A stretch of DNA of 21,941 nucleotides, from UHGV virus genome UHGV-0143306; one strand, given 5' to 3'. Of the stretch, positions 185 through 14,084 are shown piece after piece; positions within the stretch are counted from its first letter, which is position 1, and each line of letters starts with the position of its first letter. A program made the position numbers and the translations under genes. The notes beneath the pieces are model-generated. The model saw only the letters and a program-made list of their open reading frames with translations. It did not search any database and was not told the origin of the DNA. Origin of the DNA: a virus.

Positions 185-547
185 ATGTTAAAACTATTTG
201 CAAAGTACACCTCTATTGGCGTGCTGAACACCCTTATACACTGGGTGGTTTTTGGTGTATGTATCTATGCCGCGCATACCAATCAGGCTCTGGCAAACTT
301 CGCAGGTTTTGTTGTGGCTGTGAGTTTTAGCTTCTTCGCGAATGCAAAATTCACATTCAAAGCATCAACTACAACGATGCGCTACATGTTATATGTCGGG
401 TTCATGGGAACACTGAGTGCAACTGTTGGATGGGCTGCTGATAGATGTTCACTTCCTCCAATTGTCACTCTCGTCACCTTCTCCGCCATCAGCTTGGTGT
501 GCGGTTTCGTCTATTCAAAGTTCATTGTCTTTAGGGATGCGAAATGA
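185..547 (+). CDS. gtrA: GtrA, bactoprenol-linked glucose translocase (flippase), 120 aa
   Basis: 120-aa hydrophobic protein, the same length as P22 GtrA. It is first in a three-gene operon and its stop overlaps the gtrB start (ATGA). Confidence 0.88.
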
Positions 548-1470
548 AGATATCTCTTGTAGTTCCTGTCTTCAATGAAGAAGAAGCGATACCAATTTTT
601 TATAAAACGGTACGTGAGTTCGAAGAGTTGAAGCCATATGAAGTGGAAATTGTTTTCATAAATGACGGAAGCAAAGACGCTACGGAGTCAATTATTAATG
701 CTCTGGCTGTTTCAGACCCGCTGGTTGTTCCGCTGTCATTTACACGAAACTTTGGTAAAGAACCAGCATTGTTTGCAGGGCTAGACCATGCAACCGGAGA
801 TGCTGTAATTCCAATTGATGTTGACCTGCAAGATCCGATTGAGGTTATTCCCCACCTCATCGAAAAGTGGCAGGCAGGCTCTGATATGGTGCTGGCTAAG
901 CGAACTGATCGCTCAACTGACGGACGACTGAAACGCAAAACGGCAGAGTGGTTTTATAAATTGCACAACAAAATAAGCAACCCAAAGATCGAGGAGAATG
1001 TCGGCGATTTCCGGTTAATGAGCCGTGAAGTTGTCGAAAACATTAAGCTTATGCCAGAGCGCAACCTTTTTATGAAAGGTGTGCTGAGTTGGGTTGGCGG
1101 TCGCACAGATGTTGTCGAGTATGCACGCGCAGAACGAGTGGCAGGCAGTACTAAATTTAATGGATGGAAACTGTGGAACCTGGCACTTGAGGGGATCACA
1201 AGCTTCTCTACTTTCCCGTTGCGCATGTGGACTTACATTGGCCTGTTCGTAGCTGGAGTGGCGTTTCTGTACGGTGCTTGGATGATTATCGACACACTGG
1301 CCTTCGGCAATGCTGTGCGTGGATATCCATCCCTGCTTGTCTCTATTCTGTTCCTTGGTGGCGTGCAACTTATTGGCATTGGCGTTCTTGGTGAGTACAT
1401 TGGCAGGATTTATGTTGAGTCCAAGCAGCGCCCGAGATTTATTCTGAAGAAAAGGAATAAAGATGTTTAA
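544..1470 (+). CDS. gtrB: GtrB, bactoprenol glucosyltransferase (GT2 family), 308 aa
   Basis: Translation [22 protein letters not shown]...DGSKD...DVDLQDP closely resembles P22/Shigella-phage GtrB as recalled, with a C-terminal hydrophobic anchor. Start overlaps the gtrA stop. Confidence 0.92.
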
Positions 1471-2893
1471 GTTGAATAGATTTGATTGTGGGTGCTGGGT
1501 AATTGTTTGCGTTACCGCTCTCTTTGTATTGCCTATCCTGCTTTCAGGTGTTTTGTATCAGGACGATATACTAAGAGCGGCAAATGGTGAGGCGTATTGG
1601 GGGGTGCTTGGACGTCCTCTGTCTGACGTTGTTGTTATGGCGCTTGGGTTTGGTTCAGGATTCGTTGTTGATTCTTTTCCATTGTCTCTAATACTTGCTG
1701 GCGCATTACTTGGCGCTTCTTCAGTCATGCTTTACTGTCGGTTCGCGATCAGTCGCGGCATTGCATCTGGCCTAGTTTTTTCTTTATTTTCATTAAGCCC
1801 TTTCTTCCTTCAAAATCTTTCTTATCACTTTGACTCCCTCCCCATGATGCTTGGAGTTTTCCTTGCCGTTTTACCTTACTCTAAAATGGCAGCATCATGG
1901 AAGTTGGCGTTTAGGGTGCTATTTGGGGCTGTATGCCTTGTGCTTGCCTTGAGTCTCTATCAAGCAACAATAAATGTGTTCCTATCTTTGTGCGCCATAG
2001 AAATAGCTTACGTACTTTACAGTAGGGGAAGCGGAACAGATGCATTGCGAATGTCTGCCGAAAGAGCGGCCAGCGCAATTATTGGGATTATAATCTACAT
2101 GAAGGGTGTGACCCCATTCTTCTTGTCGAAGAATGTTCACTCAGATCTTGTATTAAAAGCTGATGATCCGGCTAAAAGCCTGCTTTACAACTTTGAAAGA
2201 TTCTGGAATATCGCATCAAGCCTCATGAATGACTCGCTTTACATGGCTTGGGTACTGATTATTGTAGTTGCGACTGTTGGCTTGATAATTCTGTCTTTCA
2301 GAGTGGCAAAGTCTGAGCTTTCTTTAACATCAAAAATTATTGGTTTTGCTGTGTTTTCTTCGGGCATTGCAGTGACACTGTTCTCAATTGCTGGGCCATT
2401 TATATTTATAGATAAGACTGTGGTTGCTCCTCGCGTAATGATGGGAGTTCCGGGGTTTATGCTGCTTATCGGCTATCTGGCATCAATGTTGCCATCAAAA
2501 AGACTAACAACTATCGCATGCATTATTCCTGTAATGTTCTCCTTGTCTTACTCGTCTGCATATGGAAATGCAAGTAAGCATCAGCGCTCGCTCGAAGATA
2601 AGGTGTTCTATGATATAGCATCTTCGTTGCCACCTAAACTGGATGGCAAAAAGGTGTTTATCTCTGGCCAGATATCTACCGCCGTCTCTACTGACATGGA
2701 ATTTAAGAGATTCCCTTCCCTTAAGTGGATGGTAATGCCTTTGTATAACTGGTCAGGAATGATAATGCTGAAACATTATGGAATTTTTGCAGAGATGGAA
2801 TCAATGAAAAATAATAACGACACTACTGTATTTAAGGATAGCCGTTACTTCATAATCCACTCAGGCAACCATTTTCATGTAATGCTTAAATAA
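1463..2893 (+). CDS. Type-specific O-antigen glucosyltransferase (GtrC position), polytopic membrane protein, 476 aa
   Basis: Third gene of the gtr operon, overlapping the gtrB stop. Strongly hydrophobic multi-helix translation, AT-rich, no family match recognised, consistent with the variable serotype-specific gtr gene. Confidence 0.72.
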
Positions 2894-2911
2894 GGCCCGT
2901 AAGGGCCTTTA
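2893..2911. terminator. Hairpin between convergent gtrC and tailspike genes, candidate bidirectional terminator
   Basis: AGGCCC-GTAA-GGGCCT (6-bp GC-rich stem, 4-nt loop) at 2893-2908. It sits between the gtrC stop (2891-2893) and the tailspike stop (2909-2911) with short U-rich flanks in both directions. Confidence 0.5.
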
Positions 2912-4888
2912 CAATGTTGGCTTAACCCACAATTTATAGTTAATACCATAGGACGCGTTAGCTGTAGTTTGTAGGACTATAGACGCATCGCTTCTAGATT
3001 TTATTCCAACTCCGGATGGCTGAGTATTTGTGCTGACACCTACCATAGCCGTAAAATCGACTATTTTAAAGTTTTCTGGAGCTGTTATGGTAACAGTGCC
3101 ATCAGCAGCAATCTTAGCTCCCTGCCACGAATTATGCACAGATACAGATCTCCCTGCATAATCGTATGAGGAGCTTGGCTTTAAATAGCGCTCTATGTAC
3201 ATCCCGCCTATAGCCTCTATATTAGCGTAGTTAGCTGGTGCTAGCTTGAGTCTAGCATCACCGCCGCCGAGTGCAGGAGCGCCGCCTAAGTTTACTCCGC
3301 AATCCTGGAAGGTCACTTTGCTTGTTGTGTCAACAGATGTAACATATTTCGTTGTTCCATCTGTCGGCCATGGCTTCACAACGGGCTGCCAGTGCTTAAT
3401 CGTTACGGTGCTGTATCCGTTAACATAAGACAGACTTCTATCAGCGTTAGGTATCGCCGTCTCATCAGTTGCAGACATTAACGACCTTACGCGATACGCA
3501 ACCCCCTGCGTACCTAGTCCCGATGGTAGAATCTCACTAGGAAGCATCGCAAAAGAAAACTCAGCCTCAACGGAACCTATGCAATTCAGTAAAGCTCCTT
3601 GCCACGCCTCTACTCCCATATCAAAAATTACCCCGTCACACGAATCAAGGGTAATGCCCATTGCAGTCTCGTTTGTGTAATCATAGTGAGCCATCGACGT
3701 CAAGGCTCCTTCGAACCAGCCGTGGAATTTAGCGTAGTTACAATTTCTAAGGTAGACAGGGAAAATCGTATGGTCGATTTGTAATTCAATATTATGCGAC
3801 GTTGTGCTGCCTCCCTCTGTGGATTTTTCCGGGGTTTTACTCACGGCATCCCAATATATCCCCTTATGGCATGAGTCAATTTTTATACTACCCTGAGTGC
3901 CCCAGCATGAGTACCCGAAAGCAGCGAACTCACCGCCATAAAGGCAAACATCAAGATTCATCTTCATGGCATTATTCATATGCAGGCAGATGGTCCCAAC
4001 GCCCTTAGAAGGAGTGTGTCTGGCCACATCCCATCTAAGCTGAAACCCCTTAAAGGTAATATTTCGCACATTGCTTCCGGTAACGCCATCACCAGTAAAT
4101 TCTGACGCGTCACCGACTCTAACAATGCACAACTGCCCAAATGCGTATGAGGAATAATCTGTAGGTACGCTGCGGATAAATCCTGTATCCCATACGAAGT
4201 CATTTAACGGTGGGGCAATCCATGTAGAATATGGGCCCAACTTGAGATAGTTGTCACCAAGGTGATATTTTTTAAACTTGGCAACATGAATGGGCCTAAC
4301 CTTCCTGTTAAGGTTTTCTGCCAACTGGCATGCAGCCCAGTCAATTGTCTGGGTCAGAGATGTTACGAATGGGTATACAGCCTGCGCTGCTGCAAGAGTC
4401 GCATAACGCTCAGATAATGGATGAACCGTACCATCTCCGATGGCGCCAAACTGCTCTGGAGATACAAACTGAATGACTTGCGAAAGATTTCCTTGTGGTT
4501 GCACGCCTACAAGCTCAGCGCCTGTTGGAAGCGCTAAATCCTGTCGCAATCTGTCAGGATCGTACTTCAGAACATTCGGAAAATAAAACTGCTGAGCACC
4601 GTATGCATCATAAACAGCCATAGAATGGCCTTGCACAGTTACGAACTTGGCAATCTGCCCGTTATATACAGGATAACCAGCAGCGTTAATGATAATTGGT
4701 TGCGAAACAGGAACGTGAGAACCGTCTTCGTTTTCCACATAAACCCGAATCTGGTTTTCAGGATTTACCGGGTCAGTGTCAATTTTACCGATATAAATTT
4801 TTCCATTGGCTACGGCTTTAAAAGAACGAGCCATAGTGAAGAGTTGCGAAGGCATAGATACAATCACATTGGCTGTAATGTCTGTCAT
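2909..4888 (-). CDS. Tailspike protein, 659 aa, P22-type head-binding N-terminal domain with a divergent receptor-binding domain
   Basis: N-terminus [47 protein letters not shown]... closely matches the P22 gp9 head-binding domain as recalled; the rest does not resemble P22 gp9. GGAG lies 9 nt upstream of the ATG. Confidence 0.88.
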
Positions 4889-5023
4889 TTAATTTGCTCC
4901 AGATACAAGGAATCGCCGCAGCATGGCTACGGTTGGAATTTGTTACATACCGAAACGGTGCGATTGTTGATTTGTACAGTAGGTTTTACGATGCCATTCC
5001 ACCCAACTGGTGAGGCATCAAGG
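4889..5023. promoter_or_regulatory. Divergent intergenic region between tailspike and mnt with candidate promoters and operator
   Basis: 135-bp non-coding gap between divergent starts. Contains an imperfect inverted repeat CCGCAGC-ATG-GCTACGG (4914-4930), a TGTACA palindrome (4973-4978), and a possible plus-strand -35 TTGTTG / -10 TACGAT with 17-nt spacing. None of these is verified. Confidence 0.3.
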
Positions 5024-5284
5024 ATGTACAGCAAATACGACGAGGCGCAGTTTCACTTGAGACTTCCGCATGAACTTCACGCGAAAATTAAACAGCGTGC
5101 GAAGATGAATAACAGGTCGCTGAACTCAGAGATAATTGCAGCGATTGAAGAATCATTGGCTAAACAAAGCTCTGCATCTGTTTACATTGACGATGCAGAG
5201 CGTATGGCAGAACAACAATCTGAGATGGTTAAGAAAATTGTCTTTGATACGCTCAAGGAGCTATATAAAAAAGACAGCAGCTAA
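5024..5284 (+). CDS. mnt: Mnt-like ribbon-helix-helix repressor, 86 aa
   Basis: C-terminal region DAERMAEQQSEMVKKIVFDTLKELYKK matches P22 Mnt (DAERLADEQSELVKKMVFDTLKDLYKK as recalled), and the N-terminal RHH region is similar. Start chosen at the internal ATG at 5024; the longer track ORF (4625-) overlaps the tailspike gene. Confidence 0.8.
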   Translation: MYSKYDEAQFHLRLPHELHAKIKQRAKMNNRSLNSEIIAAIEESLAKQSSASVYIDDAERMAEQQSEMVKKIVFDTLKELYKKDSS

Positions 5285-5304
5285 CTATCAGTTACGGAGG
5301 ATTT

Positions 5305-5382
5305 ATGCAAAGAGATATGCTGAATATTGCGTTCTACATATTTGGTTTTTGCACGTTCCTGGTGTTTGCGAAGCTATTCTGA
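5305..5382 (+). CDS. Hypothetical 25-aa hydrophobic peptide (MQRDMLNIAFYIFGFCTFLVFAKLF), single predicted transmembrane segment
   Basis: GGAGG (5296-5300) lies 4 nt upstream of the ATG at 5305, 20 nt after the mnt stop; TGA at 5380-5382. Not in the ORF track because it is too short; the translation was done by hand. Confidence 0.3.
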   Translation: MQRDMLNIAFYIFGFCTFLVFAKLF

Positions 5383-7371
5383 CAACGCATCAGACTTGGC
5401 ACCTTGAGTCAGGGCGTTAATGGCCTTTTGCGCCTGCTGCATGGCTTTCTCAAACGCTGTTGATCCGCGTGGGGTGTTTGCCATTCGGAGCATTGCATTT
5501 CTGAATGGCTCGCTCTCATAGGCGCGAGTAAGAAGTCCGTAGCTTACCGCTGCGCCAGTTGTCGCCGGGTTCATTGCCGTCCCATATCCGATAATGAACG
5601 GGATGGTTTGCTGCCCTGTTGGTGTTGTTACTGCCGATTTTGCAGCCTGCTGCGTGGATTGCAGGTAGTTTTTCAATCCTTTCAGATAAGCAGCATCCTG
5701 CCCCTTAAATATTATTCCAGTCTGGTTTTGCATGATGTTAAGCTGCCGAAGGAACTGGTCAGGGGAACCACCTGATTTCTCCATCGCCTTTCCAATGATG
5801 CCATTGCGCATTTGCACCCTACCAACACGACCAACTGAGTTATACAGAGCCTTAATTTCAGATTTGTTCTTGCTGAATAGTATGTTGTTGACAACTTCCG
5901 GCGTCAGGTCGCCTTTCATGAGAACATTCTTCAGCCTGGTATTCTTTAGTTTCGCCGCTTCGTCAGCGTAGACGGCATTGGCCTGCTGATATTTACGGAG
6001 AGTATCGTTGCCAAGATTCTGACCAATGGCACCATTGATATCGTCTGTCATCGCCTTGTAAACGCGCTGAATGGCGGCATCGGAACGGTTTGGTAACACT
6101 GGTCGCTCACCCTTCACGTCCATTCTGAACTGGCTGCGCAGGTCGCTTAATTGCTTCAGATCCAGATTTACCGGACCATCAGGACCAGCATTGCGAACAA
6201 GCTCATCACGATATGACTGAAGTTTTGAAATAGTCTCGTTATCAGCAACCTTACCAAGCTTCTGCAGGTTAGATATTTCTGTATCAATCTGCTGAATTGC
6301 TCGCGCAGGCTGAATGTTTACTCCAGCCATAGCATTCTGAACCTGCTCAAGACGGTTCCCTGCAGCACGACGAATTCCTGATGTTTTCGCTTTAAGGCTG
6401 TCAATAACAACAGCTGGATCATACTCACCGAATTTATCAGCAAATCTCTGCACCAACTGGCTTCTCGCTTCCTGTTGCGTTGCTCTCATTCCGCTTGTGC
6501 CAGCCAGGGGGATATTTTCTGCTGTAGTCTGCGCCATTTTCCCGACGCGGGAAGTAGGCTGTAACAGGTCTGTGGTGTGCAGAGGAACTCCTTCACGCTC
6601 TGCAAATCTGATAGCCTGCTGCGCTTCTGGCGCAATAGCACCACGAACGCCACGATAAGCAGCACCTAATCCACGTCCGGCAGCGTTAATAGCACCGCCA
6701 GCCAGCACACCAACGCCTAAATCGGTGGCGAGTGCTTCCGCATCATCTTTCGCACTATTTGCAGCAAGTGATCCAACTGCGTTTTCTGCGAGAAGTCGTG
6801 TTGCCCCCTGAGCAATTCGACCAGCAAGTGTTGGTGCCTGTGCTGCCGCTCTCTCAACGCCAGCAGGAGTGAGGTAAGGCAATGCTTCAGCAAATACCCT
6901 TCCCTCTGTCGTTTGTGGAGTGAGCGCGCCTTGCTGAAGACCAAAGTCCTGCTCTAACCCCTGCGTTGTTACTCGTGGCGCTGGTTGATATGTACCATCG
7001 CCAATGCCGAGTTTACCGCCAGCCCATGCCGCCGCGCTTGTTACAGCATCGGCAACTGATGCAGGTATGTTTGCCACGTTCACGCCAGCCTGCACCAGTC
7101 CACGACCAGTCTCTTTTACTGCTTCACCAAGATCAGACATAAACCCACTTTGCTGTGGTTGTTGCTGTGCTTCTGGTTGTTGTGTCTCCACTGGCTGCAC
7201 AGATGGCAATGGATAGGTAGCATAGAAAGCTTGCTTAGCCTGCTCTGCATTTTCTCCGGCTTGCGGGGCCACGACTTCATTGAAGTATTGCTCCTGAGCC
7301 TGCGCTTTTTGTTCTGGTGCTAACGCCTGATACTGTGGAGAGGCGATAACATCTTTCCATGCTTTAGCCAT
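5374..7371 (-). CDS. Ejection (injection) protein, P22 gp16 homologue, 665 aa
   Basis: Last gene of the gp7-gp20-gp16 block in conserved P22 order. Start overlaps the gp20 stop (TAATG). Confidence 0.8.
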   Translation of the reverse strand: MAKAWKDVIASPQYQALAPEQKAQAQEQYFNEVVAPQAGENAEQAKQAFYATYPLPSVQPVETQQPEAQQQPQQSGFMSDLGEAVKETGRGLVQAGVNVANIPASVADAVTSAAAWAGGKLGIGDGTYQPAPRVTTQGLEQDFGLQQGALTPQTTEGRVFAEALPYLTPAGVERAAAQAPTLAGRIAQGATRLLAENAVGSLAANSAKDDAEALATDLGVGVLAGGAINAAGRGLGAAYRGVRGAIAPEAQQAIRFAEREGVPLHTTDLLQPTSRVGKMAQTTAENIPLAGTSGMRATQQEARSQLVQRFADKFGEYDPAVVIDSLKAKTSGIRRAAGNRLEQVQNAMAGVNIQPARAIQQIDTEISNLQKLGKVADNETISKLQSYRDELVRNAGPDGPVNLDLKQLSDLRSQFRMDVKGERPVLPNRSDAAIQRVYKAMTDDINGAIGQNLGNDTLRKYQQANAVYADEAAKLKNTRLKNVLMKGDLTPEVVNNILFSKNKSEIKALYNSVGRVGRVQMRNGIIGKAMEKSGGSPDQFLRQLNIMQNQTGIIFKGQDAAYLKGLKNYLQSTQQAAKSAVTTPTGQQTIPFIIGYGTAMNPATTGAAVSYGLLTRAYESEPFRNAMLRMANTPRGSTAFEKAMQQAQKAINALTQGAKSDALSE

Positions 7372-12788: not shown

Positions 12789-14084
12789 TCACGCGGTCTG
12801 GTTAGGCAGACCAACACCAATTGCCTCTGGTCGTACAGCACATGCTGAATACCACACAGCAATACGGCACTTACCAGACAGAGTATTGATATCACCCTGC
12901 GTTGCGAAGATGCCGTTAACACCAATACCAGGAATGCTGAAGGAAGAAGTTTTCATGCCAGCAAACAGTTCATGGGTTACCGGGATCGGCTGAGACAGCA
13001 GACGGATTGAGTCATCAGCCCAGAACACGTTAGCGGTGGTTGTTGCCACGTTCAGAACGTTTACCGGAGTGGCATCAGCAAGATGGGTGTTTACGTTAGC
13101 GTAAGCCTTCTCTTCTTTTGTCAGTGACGCGTCATCCAGCGCAATCGGCTTCGGCGTGATTTCGATGTGAGTACCATCGATCACACGGGTGATTGAGAAA
13201 GTCGCATCATCAGTCAGCACGTTCTTCGCCATCTGAGACAGGAATTTCACACCAGTGAAGCTGATTTTGTCGCCGCGCTTAAATCCGGTGGTGGAGGATA
13301 CGGTCACCGTTGCAACACGGTTATCGACGTTCTCTTTGTTACCATCGGTATCAAGGGTGTATGCCTGCGGCTTAAACTTCTGCGCACCAGAAACAGTTAC
13401 ACCAGTAGCGGTTGACTTGGTAACTGCGGGAAGTTTCGGTGAGCGAAGAATTTCATCAAAGCCAGCAATCTGACGCTGAATAGTACCGTTGTGATACGCG
13501 TCTTCAGTAACGCGCCCGAAGATGTCACCATCTACCAGGTTGCGGCCTGCTTTGCGGTAATCGTCAGGGTTCAGGAAGTAACTGATGCCCATATCGCGGT
13601 TTAGCTCACGGGAGAACATCAGGCGCTCTGCATCAGACACAAAATCCCAGCCAGACAGGCCAGTAGATGGACCAATTGCGCGGGTATCGTGAACAACAAG
13701 CGAGCCCATTTCAGTTGCCTGTTTGGCAATTGCTGACTCAATGTTATTCGCCAGTTTTTTGGCGGATGCCTGGATGCGACGACGGTAAGAACGCTCATCA
13801 CGCAGGTCATCTGCACGAAGCTCGAAGAAATCGTTATCCGGATCGCCCATGTTGCATTTCACGGAGAGTTCCAGAATCCCGGTTGCGTTGCCAGTTAAAT
13901 CCCAGCCAGTCTGAGTTGGCGCTTCCTGCTCAACAGGCATCCACACGGTGTTGCTTGAACGTTGCATGGACTCTGCCGGAGGGGTGTATTTTGTCACTTT
14001 GGACGCCATTGGCGTCAGATTCTGGACGGTTTCGATGATTTCATCCAGAGCATACGTGACCAGTTGACCTTCATTTAATGCCAT
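12789..14084 (-). CDS. Major capsid (coat) protein, P22 gp5 homologue, 431 aa
   Basis: [54 protein letters not shown]... closely matches the P22 coat protein as recalled (430 aa in P22). Confidence 0.95.

Follow-up and report, generated by a model that had tools for sequence, protein, structure and literature searches.

The window analysed here is a stretch of 21,941 nucleotides (nt) of the virus genome UHGV-0143306, which has the setting of a P22-like prophage: gtrA/gtrB/GtrII, tailspike, mnt, a small open reading frame (ORF), gp16, gp20, and gp7. The small ORF is the subject of this report. It lies 20 nt beyond the end of mnt, on the same strand, and converges on the gp16 gene (Table 1). 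From the sequence alone, the initial annotation had taken it for a hydrophobic peptide gene of 25 amino acids (aa) with GGAGG ahead of its ATG, overlapping the gp16 stop by 9 nt at the position where P22 carries sieA. The sequence at 5305-5382 is as claimed, and the convergent overlap is real (5374-5382). The analogy with sieA is exact, as both genes converge on and abut gene 16. The predicted product begins with polar residues (MQRD), after which ~15-17 residues form a hydrophobic segment, with the best hydrophobic stretch at residues 8-22 (summed Hessa free energy of -1.6, favourable).

Conservation of the reading frame

We collected 124 P22-like loci using as anchor a 17-mer that spans the gp16 stop. 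The peptide ORF was intact in all of them, with the ATG, 25 sense codons, the same TGA, and no insertions or deletions, across 48 nucleotide haplotypes and 32 peptide variants. Because the 17-mer covers 12 nt of the ORF itself, sampling was redone with only the gp16 C-terminal protein sequence as anchor. This yielded 79 loci on contigs that overlap those of the 17-mer sample, 78 with DNA past the gp16 stop, and the ORF was again intact in 78/78. When genome contigs were scanned with the 17-mer, most matches were due to chance and the relevant ones came from Escherichia coli and E. whittamii only. The 25-aa type was found in 269 of 5,426 complete E. coli genomes (~5%); among E. coli strains, G3/10 is 100% identical to the window over 5296-5420.

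On a minimum-spanning tree of the haplotypes, the 25-aa clade shows 80 changes, distributed 21/18/41 over codon positions 1, 2, and 3. Thirty-three of these are synonymous, 47 are non-synonymous, and none introduces a stop, with a random expectation of 19-28% synonymous changes; the synonymous excess has p=4e-6 to 8e-3 over a transition bias (kappa) of 1 to 8. In the other two forward frames, 9-10 stops would arise.

Phages with a gp16 C-terminal region ~75-83% identical to that of the window have a 23-codon ORF in the corresponding place, likewise convergent on gene 16 and overlapping it; they include Salmonella phages L, ST64T, ST104, MG40, SPN9CC, g341c, and BTP1, Klebsiella phage phiKp_30, and E. 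coli phage HF4s. The product in phage L is MNRDLLNFAFLIFGIVVGRLLFA, and the overlap with gene 16 is 12 nt in L and BTP1 (versus 9 nt in the window). With the L-type gp16 protein as anchor, the 23-aa ORF was intact in 84/84 loci. Their 38 haplotypes, which are free of insertions and deletions, imply 239 changes (59/16/164 over the three codon positions), 169 synonymous versus 66 non-synonymous where 23-34% synonymous would be expected at random (binomial p<=3e-30 even at kappa 8). Four apparent stops are artefacts of codon differences that require two steps, and no haplotype contains a stop. Over the two clades, the number of stops that would have arisen in the other frames ranges from 9 to 34. 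Not one disrupted copy of either peptide type was seen in about 290 locus retrievals; the tolerated frameshifts and stops that the initial annotation had named as the mark of a spurious frame are absent from the relatives.

The two clades have in common the motif M-x-R-D-x-L-N-x-A-F-x-I-F-G. When the 23-aa L-type profile was run against the 814 six-frame ORFs of the window, the ORF at 5269-5379 was recovered at E=5e-7 and the next at 3.4, and the window-type profile found the L, BTP1, and phiKp_30 ORFs at ~3e-5, with the next match at 0.7. The upstream regions align as well, with the block GGAGG(A/G)TTT-ATG and a conserved GTTATAAT ~21 nt before the ribosome binding site (RBS). Judged by these searches and alignments, the 25-aa and 23-aa types are homologous. 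The substitution pattern shows purifying selection on the reading frame in two diverged clades, and the ORF represents a bona fide protein-coding gene family that escaped annotation. We consider it very likely that the gene is translated.

We found no match to either peptide type in Pfam, PHROGs, NCBIfam, or PADLOC, and an exact look-up of the eight commonest peptide variants in a collection of 15 billion proteins returned 0/8. The ORF is not annotated in the RefSeq E. coli records inspected or in those of Sf6, IME10, Sf101, 683R2, 720R6, Gally, VSe13, L, MG40, ST104, BTP1, and HF4s. In the view of the initial annotation this was a true gene for a small membrane peptide, overlooked for being so short, and the intact frame at all loci, its coding signature, and its absence from these records agree with that proposal. 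Two other candidates at the locus were discarded. A structured RNA or terminator was not supported, as folding z-scores were -0.6 to -1.7 on both strands and no terminator was found; Rfam gave no match in window positions 4400-6000. An overlapping 94-aa ORF with a TTG start (5136..5420) was disregarded because relatives accumulate stops in that frame.

In three upstream contexts, the point at which homology with other phages breaks off is precisely the ATG (window 5304). About half of the loci have the 3' end of mnt there, as in the window, loci of the Sf6 type have a bare tailspike-proximal spacer, and Gally, 720R6, and VSe13 have the gene of a 161-aa lipoprotein. Breakpoints of this kind typically mark where mosaic modules meet at the border of a gene, and the GGAGG(A/G)TTT-ATG block recurs in most contexts with both peptide types. 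The location downstream of mnt given by the initial annotation is correct for the window, but mnt is one of at least three upstream contexts. The peptide gene is tied to the Sf6/L-type gp16 3' end, not to mnt. By tblastn, the C-terminal 250 aa of the window gp16 are 97% identical to the same part in IME10, Gally, and 720R6, ~75% identical to L/ST104, and 36% identical to P22 gene 16. The peptide is absent from diverged gp16 relatives in a Proteus phage, which has a hairpin terminator there, and in Vibrio phages, which have unrelated ORFs of 41-61 aa; it is also absent with the other gp16 types of P22, where sieA is present, and HK620, where hkcB is present. The peptide type co-varies with the gp16 segment, the 25-aa type occurring with PFIIGYGTAMNPATTGAAVSYGLL and the 23-aa type with PFILGIGTVTNPALVGVGGGYGLL.

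The BTP1 transcript STnc6030 and gp16 escape mutations

The slot that holds the peptide gene, between the start of the tailspike gene and the end of gene 16 and antisense to the late operon, is also that of STnc6030, a 786-nt transcript of the Salmonella prophage BTP1 in S. Typhimurium ST313 strain D23580 (403942..404727; Owen et al, 2020, Microb Genom, PMC7067206). STnc6030 is antisense to the tailspike gene's 5' end and gene 16's 3' end, is strongly expressed in lysogens (mean transcripts per million (TPM) of ~90), and was classed as non-coding as it contains no ORF >60 aa, which were the only ORFs ruled out (PMC7067206). When supplied from a plasmid to a BTP1-cured host, it conferred total immunity to BTP1 and none to P22; it did not lower spontaneous prophage induction, which the authors call unexplained under the antisense model (PMC7067206). 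Phages that escaped carried one single-nucleotide polymorphism (SNP) each, at D23580 404041-404078, of which four were unique and all were non-synonymous; the escapes had been selected against the whole fragment, and gp20 was not sequenced in that work (PMC7067206). A 2025 review continues to count STnc6030 among antisense RNAs (PMC12197685).

We remapped these data. Primers NW_295/NW_296 map exactly on BTP1 and give an insert of exactly 786 nt, of which nt 407-478 are the 23-aa ORF MERDLLNFVFLIFGLVVGKLLFA, with GGAGG ahead of it (BTP1 14082..14011, corresponding to D23580 404321..404250). No other ORF in the insert with 15 codons or more has an ATG start behind a consensus RBS. The cloned transcript, which is expressed in the lysogen and excludes phage with the matching gp16, thus holds the homologue together with its RBS. 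The BTP1 peptide differs from that of the window in its length of 23 rather than 25 aa and in its C-terminal half, whereas 9 of the first 14 residues are identical. We found no paper that proposes a peptide, either in the literature on STnc6030 or in full text searched for the peptide strings.

The escape SNPs fall within gene 16 (STMMW_03891, 402294..404261) and affect gp16 residues 583-595 of 655. In an alignment of gp16 from P22, BTP1, L, and the window, these residues correspond to P22 540-552. P22 overcomes SieA by the gp16 changes G532W and P546S (Leavitt et al, 2024, mBio, PMC10883804), and G532 aligns with BTP1 G576 and P546 with BTP1 V589. By this alignment, SieA exclusion and STnc6030 exclusion are escaped via the same glycine-rich hydrophobic segment near the C-terminus of gp16 (window residues 586-605). 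Full escape from SieA needs changes in gp20 too (PMC10883804).

Expression signals and neighbouring genes

The scan for terminators found none between mnt and the peptide ORF and none at the gp16 end. In the window, the peptide is likely expressed as part of the lysogenic mnt transcript, because the ORF follows mnt by 20 nt, has a consensus RBS, and is separated from it by no terminator. A simple promoter scan of the region presumed to hold the mnt promoter (4889..5023) gave no match.

In BTP1, STnc6030 starts from a promoter, TTGAAT-17-TTCAAT, that lies inside the tailspike gene at codon ~104 (L325 1035-1125). The window ORF is without a tailspike-proximal leader, and mnt separates it from the upstream 400 nt of STnc6030; the long antisense transcript may not be present in the window prophage. 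Loci of the canonical arrangement have two strongly conserved blocks, ACTTGCGCAGCGTTGCGTT and GTTATAAT, in the spacer that runs from the tailspike ATG to the peptide ORF (L269 2314-2400, minus strand), which could be a promoter of the peptide gene, an operator, or a signal in the late mRNA upstream of the tailspike gene. In the canonical context the GTTATAAT block has no -35 element at 16-18 nt and is a promoter candidate only. In phage L, the sequence AGATCA-AAGAA-TGATCT (L237 2330-2350), located upstream of the peptide RBS by ~20 nt, forms a perfect inverted repeat that is also seen in ST104-type loci and looks like an operator.

Table 1. Positions of the peptide gene and surrounding features in the window
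Feature	Position	Strand	Details
Peptide ORF	5305..5382	+	25 codons; ATG at 5305, TGA ending at 5382; product MQRDMLNIAFYIFGFCTFLVFAKLF
Shine-Dalgarno sequence GGAGG	5296-5300	+	spacer ATTT (4 nt) to the ATG
mnt, Arc/Mnt-family repressor, 86 aa	5024..5284	+	Pfam Repressor_Mnt 2e-15, Arc 6.5e-15
Intergenic region from tailspike start to mnt	4889..5023	+	presumed site of the mnt promoter
gp16-type DNA ejection protein, Sf6/L type, 665 aa	5374..7371	-	proposed target of the peptide
Glycine-rich hydrophobic segment, gp16 residues 586-605	5557..5616	-	PFIIGYGTAMNPATTGAAVS; aligns with escape residues
Tailspike, Head_binding N-terminal domain	2909..4888	-	Pfam PF09008, 1.1e-66

The tailspike gene forms the opposite border of the variable region that contains mnt and the peptide gene, the 'ant moron' region, a concept introduced for a region with assorted accessory genes (PMC2629481). 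Here mnt is present without arc or ant and lies 135 nt from the tailspike start codon, in divergent orientation. Its product is named Arc family DNA-binding protein in RefSeq; the same Mnt protein is labelled 'partition protein ATPase' in Sf101, in the RefSeq records of P22 and ST104, and in PHROG 795, apparently a mis-annotation that has spread. Names for the gp16 homologue in RefSeq also vary ('lytic transglycosylase domain-containing protein', 'P22-gp16 family phage DNA ejection protein', 'DNA transfer protein', and 'hypothetical protein'), and the window copy has no match in Pfam. On the other side, the gtrA/gtrB/GtrII-type O-antigen glucosylation cluster (185..2893) adjoins the tailspike gene, on whose 3' end it converges, a placement seen in other serotype-converting P22-like prophages.

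The lipoprotein of Gally, 720R6, and VSe13 (161-171 aa) is encoded on the strand of the peptide ORF and 21 nt upstream of it (L008 695-1180, L007 665-1180, and L006 695-1180 in the retrieved loci). It has an LAGC lipobox and a match to phrog_6067, to which no function is assigned, and is without a Pfam match. Lipoprotein and peptide may form a two-gene membrane module. Taking the upstream 161-aa protein of Gally and VSe13 for SieA was wrong, as it is this lipoprotein.

Exclusion by the peptide and its alternatives

On balance, we lean towards the reading that the peptide mediates gp16-directed exclusion. The prophage would express, in the lysogen, a 25-residue single-pass inner-membrane peptide, in the window as the second cistron of the mnt transcript. 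Located in the inner membrane, the peptide would hinder the hydrophobic segment near the C-terminus of gp16 in inserting into the membrane or in forming the conduit. Its targets would be incoming P22-like phages with an Sf6/L-type gp16, whose DNA would fail to enter, and an induced resident prophage would be unaffected, as it does not need DNA entry. The true effector of 'STnc6030' exclusion would then be the encoded membrane peptide, acting in the manner of SieA. We infer that the peptide and not the RNA is the effector, that it inserts into the membrane, that the 25-aa version of E. coli acts like its BTP1 homologue, and that it is co-transcribed with mnt.

Several observations would follow from such an effector. 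A membrane peptide would explain why a single SNP suffices for escape and why the escape mutations change amino acids and lie where they do, and it would explain the strong purifying selection on the peptide. The induced prophage would be immune because no DNA entry is required of it, and P22 would be unaffected because its gp16 is of a different type. An old genetic result, that phage L lysogens are without P22-type sieA exclusion, is consistent with this since P22 would not be a target. We also count in favour of a membrane peptide that membrane proteins occupy the same slot in P22 (SieA) and HK620 (HkcB).

Other points weigh against exclusion by the peptide. The published reading of the BTP1 locus is that of an antisense RNA, and the phenotype was shown for the whole 786-nt fragment, in which RNA and ORF are present together; all of the exclusion data come from this BTP1 fragment with its 23-aa ORF. 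That four of four escape SNPs are non-synonymous is statistically not decisive, and the co-variation of peptide and gp16 segment is confounded by linkage, the two being ~200 bp apart. Translation and membrane location are predictions for every member of the family. The hydrophobic stretch is short (~15 residues), and natural variants place charged residues in it, with Arg14 in the middle of the stretch in the VSe13 type and Glu22 in many others. As to expression, the RBS is weak in the Sf6-type and lipoprotein-linked contexts, which are two of the three 25-aa contexts, and a simple sigma-70 scan upstream of the ORF found no canonical promoter in the window, Sf6, L, or the canonical locus L269. 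Nor is the promoter of BTP1 STnc6030 conserved in the window, where positions 4530-4600 have TCGCAA...TTCAGA, a poorer match.

The published alternative is that an antisense RNA like STnc6030 base-pairs with mRNA that the incoming phage makes from gene 16 and the tailspike gene, and that the ORF is irrelevant to exclusion, serving another purpose or the stability of the transcript. The abundance of the transcript, the position of the escape SNPs under its 3' end, and the lack of nucleotide similarity there in P22, which is not excluded, speak for it (PMC7067206), and the transcript is necessarily antisense into gene 16 at every locus. Yet one SNP within ~320 nt of perfect complementarity should barely weaken pairing, and the paradox of the unaffected induced prophage was noted by the authors themselves. 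All of the escape SNPs alter gp16 residues in the segment that also gives SieA escape, and an RNA-only role leaves the strong selection at the amino acid level unexplained. The 5' 400 nt that are antisense to the tailspike gene are uncoupled from the ORF in the window and in lipoprotein-linked contexts, where the ORF is nevertheless kept, and neither the folding scores nor Rfam point to a structured RNA. Cis-antisense RNAs are characterised by a lack of conserved coding capacity; here a conserved ORF under selection is present. We regard an RNA effector as unlikely.

A somewhat less likely alternative accepts the peptide as real but gives it another role. Like MgrB, MgtS, or AcrZ, it would act on a membrane protein of the host, as a small modulator or as a factor in lysogenic conversion, or else on processes of the phage itself. 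The coding signature and hydrophobic core would suit small membrane proteins of any sort, a specific partner is suggested by the conserved motif RDxLNxAFxIFG at the N-terminus, and assorted accessory genes are what the 'ant moron' region carries (PMC2629481). But the BTP1 fragment that contains the ORF clearly excludes, with escapes in gp16, and linkage of the gene to a single gp16 family is strict, with the gene absent beside the other gp16 types of P22 and HK620 and beside the more diverged gp16 of Proteus and Vibrio phages. P22 hybrids in which Sf6 genes 7, 20, and 16 were swapped in precisely, without the full ORF, are viable (PMC10883804), so that gp16 can function without the peptide.

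We give very little weight to a membrane-damaging peptide of the type I toxin kind, with the convergent late gene 16 transcript as antidote, or to an abortive-infection effector. In size and hydrophobicity the peptide resembles Ibs, ShoB, DinQ, and TisB, which have 19-35 aa, a hydrophobic helix, and convergent or antisense transcription at their loci, and the ORF's 3' end overlaps a convergent transcript. These toxins are translationally silenced and toxic on expression, whereas the peptide ORF has a consensus RBS and an abundant transcript. Scans of Pfam, NCBIfam, and PADLOC gave no similarity to type I toxins. Instead of the repressed translation and structured leader of type I toxins, the locus has a short leader without significant structure, the opposite of tight translational repression, and expression is high in healthy lysogens (TPM ~90, PMC7067206); no toxicity was reported on constitutive expression from the PLlacO-1 plasmid. 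The supposed antisense, the late transcript, is absent in lysogens, and 'total immunity' with escapes in a virion protein does not suit an abortive phenotype. Among the roles of toxin, exclusion factor, and modulator offered by the initial annotation, exclusion thus gains indirect support from the BTP1 STnc6030 data (PMC7067206), and the consensus RBS and expression in lysogens make a toxin unlikely. An untranslated chance ORF in a conserved non-coding spacer is just as improbable and is already contradicted by the comparative data. In its favour, the ORF has only 25 codons and no gene caller or database has it; but it is intact at every locus of three samples, both clades show the third-position and synonymous excess, the amino acid motif is kept across clades that have diverged in nucleotide sequence, the RBS is conserved, and mosaic junctions fall at the start codon.

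Exclusion by the peptide would place it beside SieA, a prophage-expressed inner-membrane protein that stops DNA from entering and leaves induction unaffected (PMC10883804). The two genes share position and orientation, P22 sieA lying 22 bp from the gene 16 stop (L009 2337-2831), and the SieA escapes (P22 G532/P546) and BTP1 escapes (583-595) fall by alignment in the same C-terminal segment of gp16. SieA differs in having 162-164 aa and three transmembrane helices, against 23-25 aa and one short hydrophobic segment. At 25 aa the peptide falls outside the SieA family, whose types A, B, and C have ~160-200 aa and 3-4 transmembrane helices; it shares the location between gene 16 and gene 9 and the convergent orientation, with prophage expression seen for the BTP1 homologue only. 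A search for the peptide as a homologue or fragment of SieA was negative, since the top scorers of the peptide profile were all shuffled SieA sequences and real SieA was not among them. SieA excludes phages with the E-proteins of P22, L, Sf6, and CUS-3, and the STnc6030 fragment excludes BTP1 and not P22 (PMC10883804, PMC7067206). In HK620 this slot is taken by the gene for HkcB (L326 2814-3143), which runs towards gene 16 and abuts its stop. HkcB has a transmembrane helix at its N-terminus, but it has 109 aa with a coiled-coil tail, is linked to another gp16 type, and shows no similarity to the peptide by eye. Every P22-like type examined has a membrane protein in the slot directly downstream of gene 16, as predicted for HkcB and the peptide. 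HkcB may be a third exclusion protein.

Membrane-associated proteins that stop DNA entry after adsorption are also known from HK97 (gp15), T4 (Imm), TP-J34 (Ltp), and Tuc2009 (Sie2009) (PMC10883804). We set these apart, without direct comparison, as unrelated in sequence and several-fold larger. HK97 gp15, Ltp, and Sie2009 act on long-tailed phages, and T4 Imm acts on T-even phages; for TP-J34, escape mutations have reportedly been found in the tape-measure protein. Blocking of DNA entry by a prophage membrane protein is a known kind of system, with SieA as the analogue in position and function; what is new is a family unrelated to SieA in sequence, ~7x smaller and unannotated, in a locus published as an antisense RNA.

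The gene is common, being found in E. coli, in Shigella phage Sf6, and in Salmonella phages L, ST64T, ST104, MG40, and BTP1, including the epidemic ST313 lineage. It provides an actual example of how a functional gene is lost when its length falls below the limits of gene callers. If the peptide is the effector, an example of superinfection exclusion by a phage antisense RNA that is on its way into textbooks needs reinterpretation, and the paradox of a resident prophage immune to its own 'RNA' would be resolved. The peptide would also be the minimal known inhibitor of the trans-envelope DNA conduit of a podovirus, and a probe for the insertion of gp16 into the inner membrane. More speculatively, and with considerable doubt on our part, the 23-25-aa peptides could count as the smallest superinfection-exclusion proteins known and as what really acts in STnc6030 exclusion, each type matched to its linked gp16 segment, so that peptide and segment form co-evolving, type-specific 'DNA-entry immunity' pairs. 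Such pairs would explain why gp16 ranks among the most variable virion genes.

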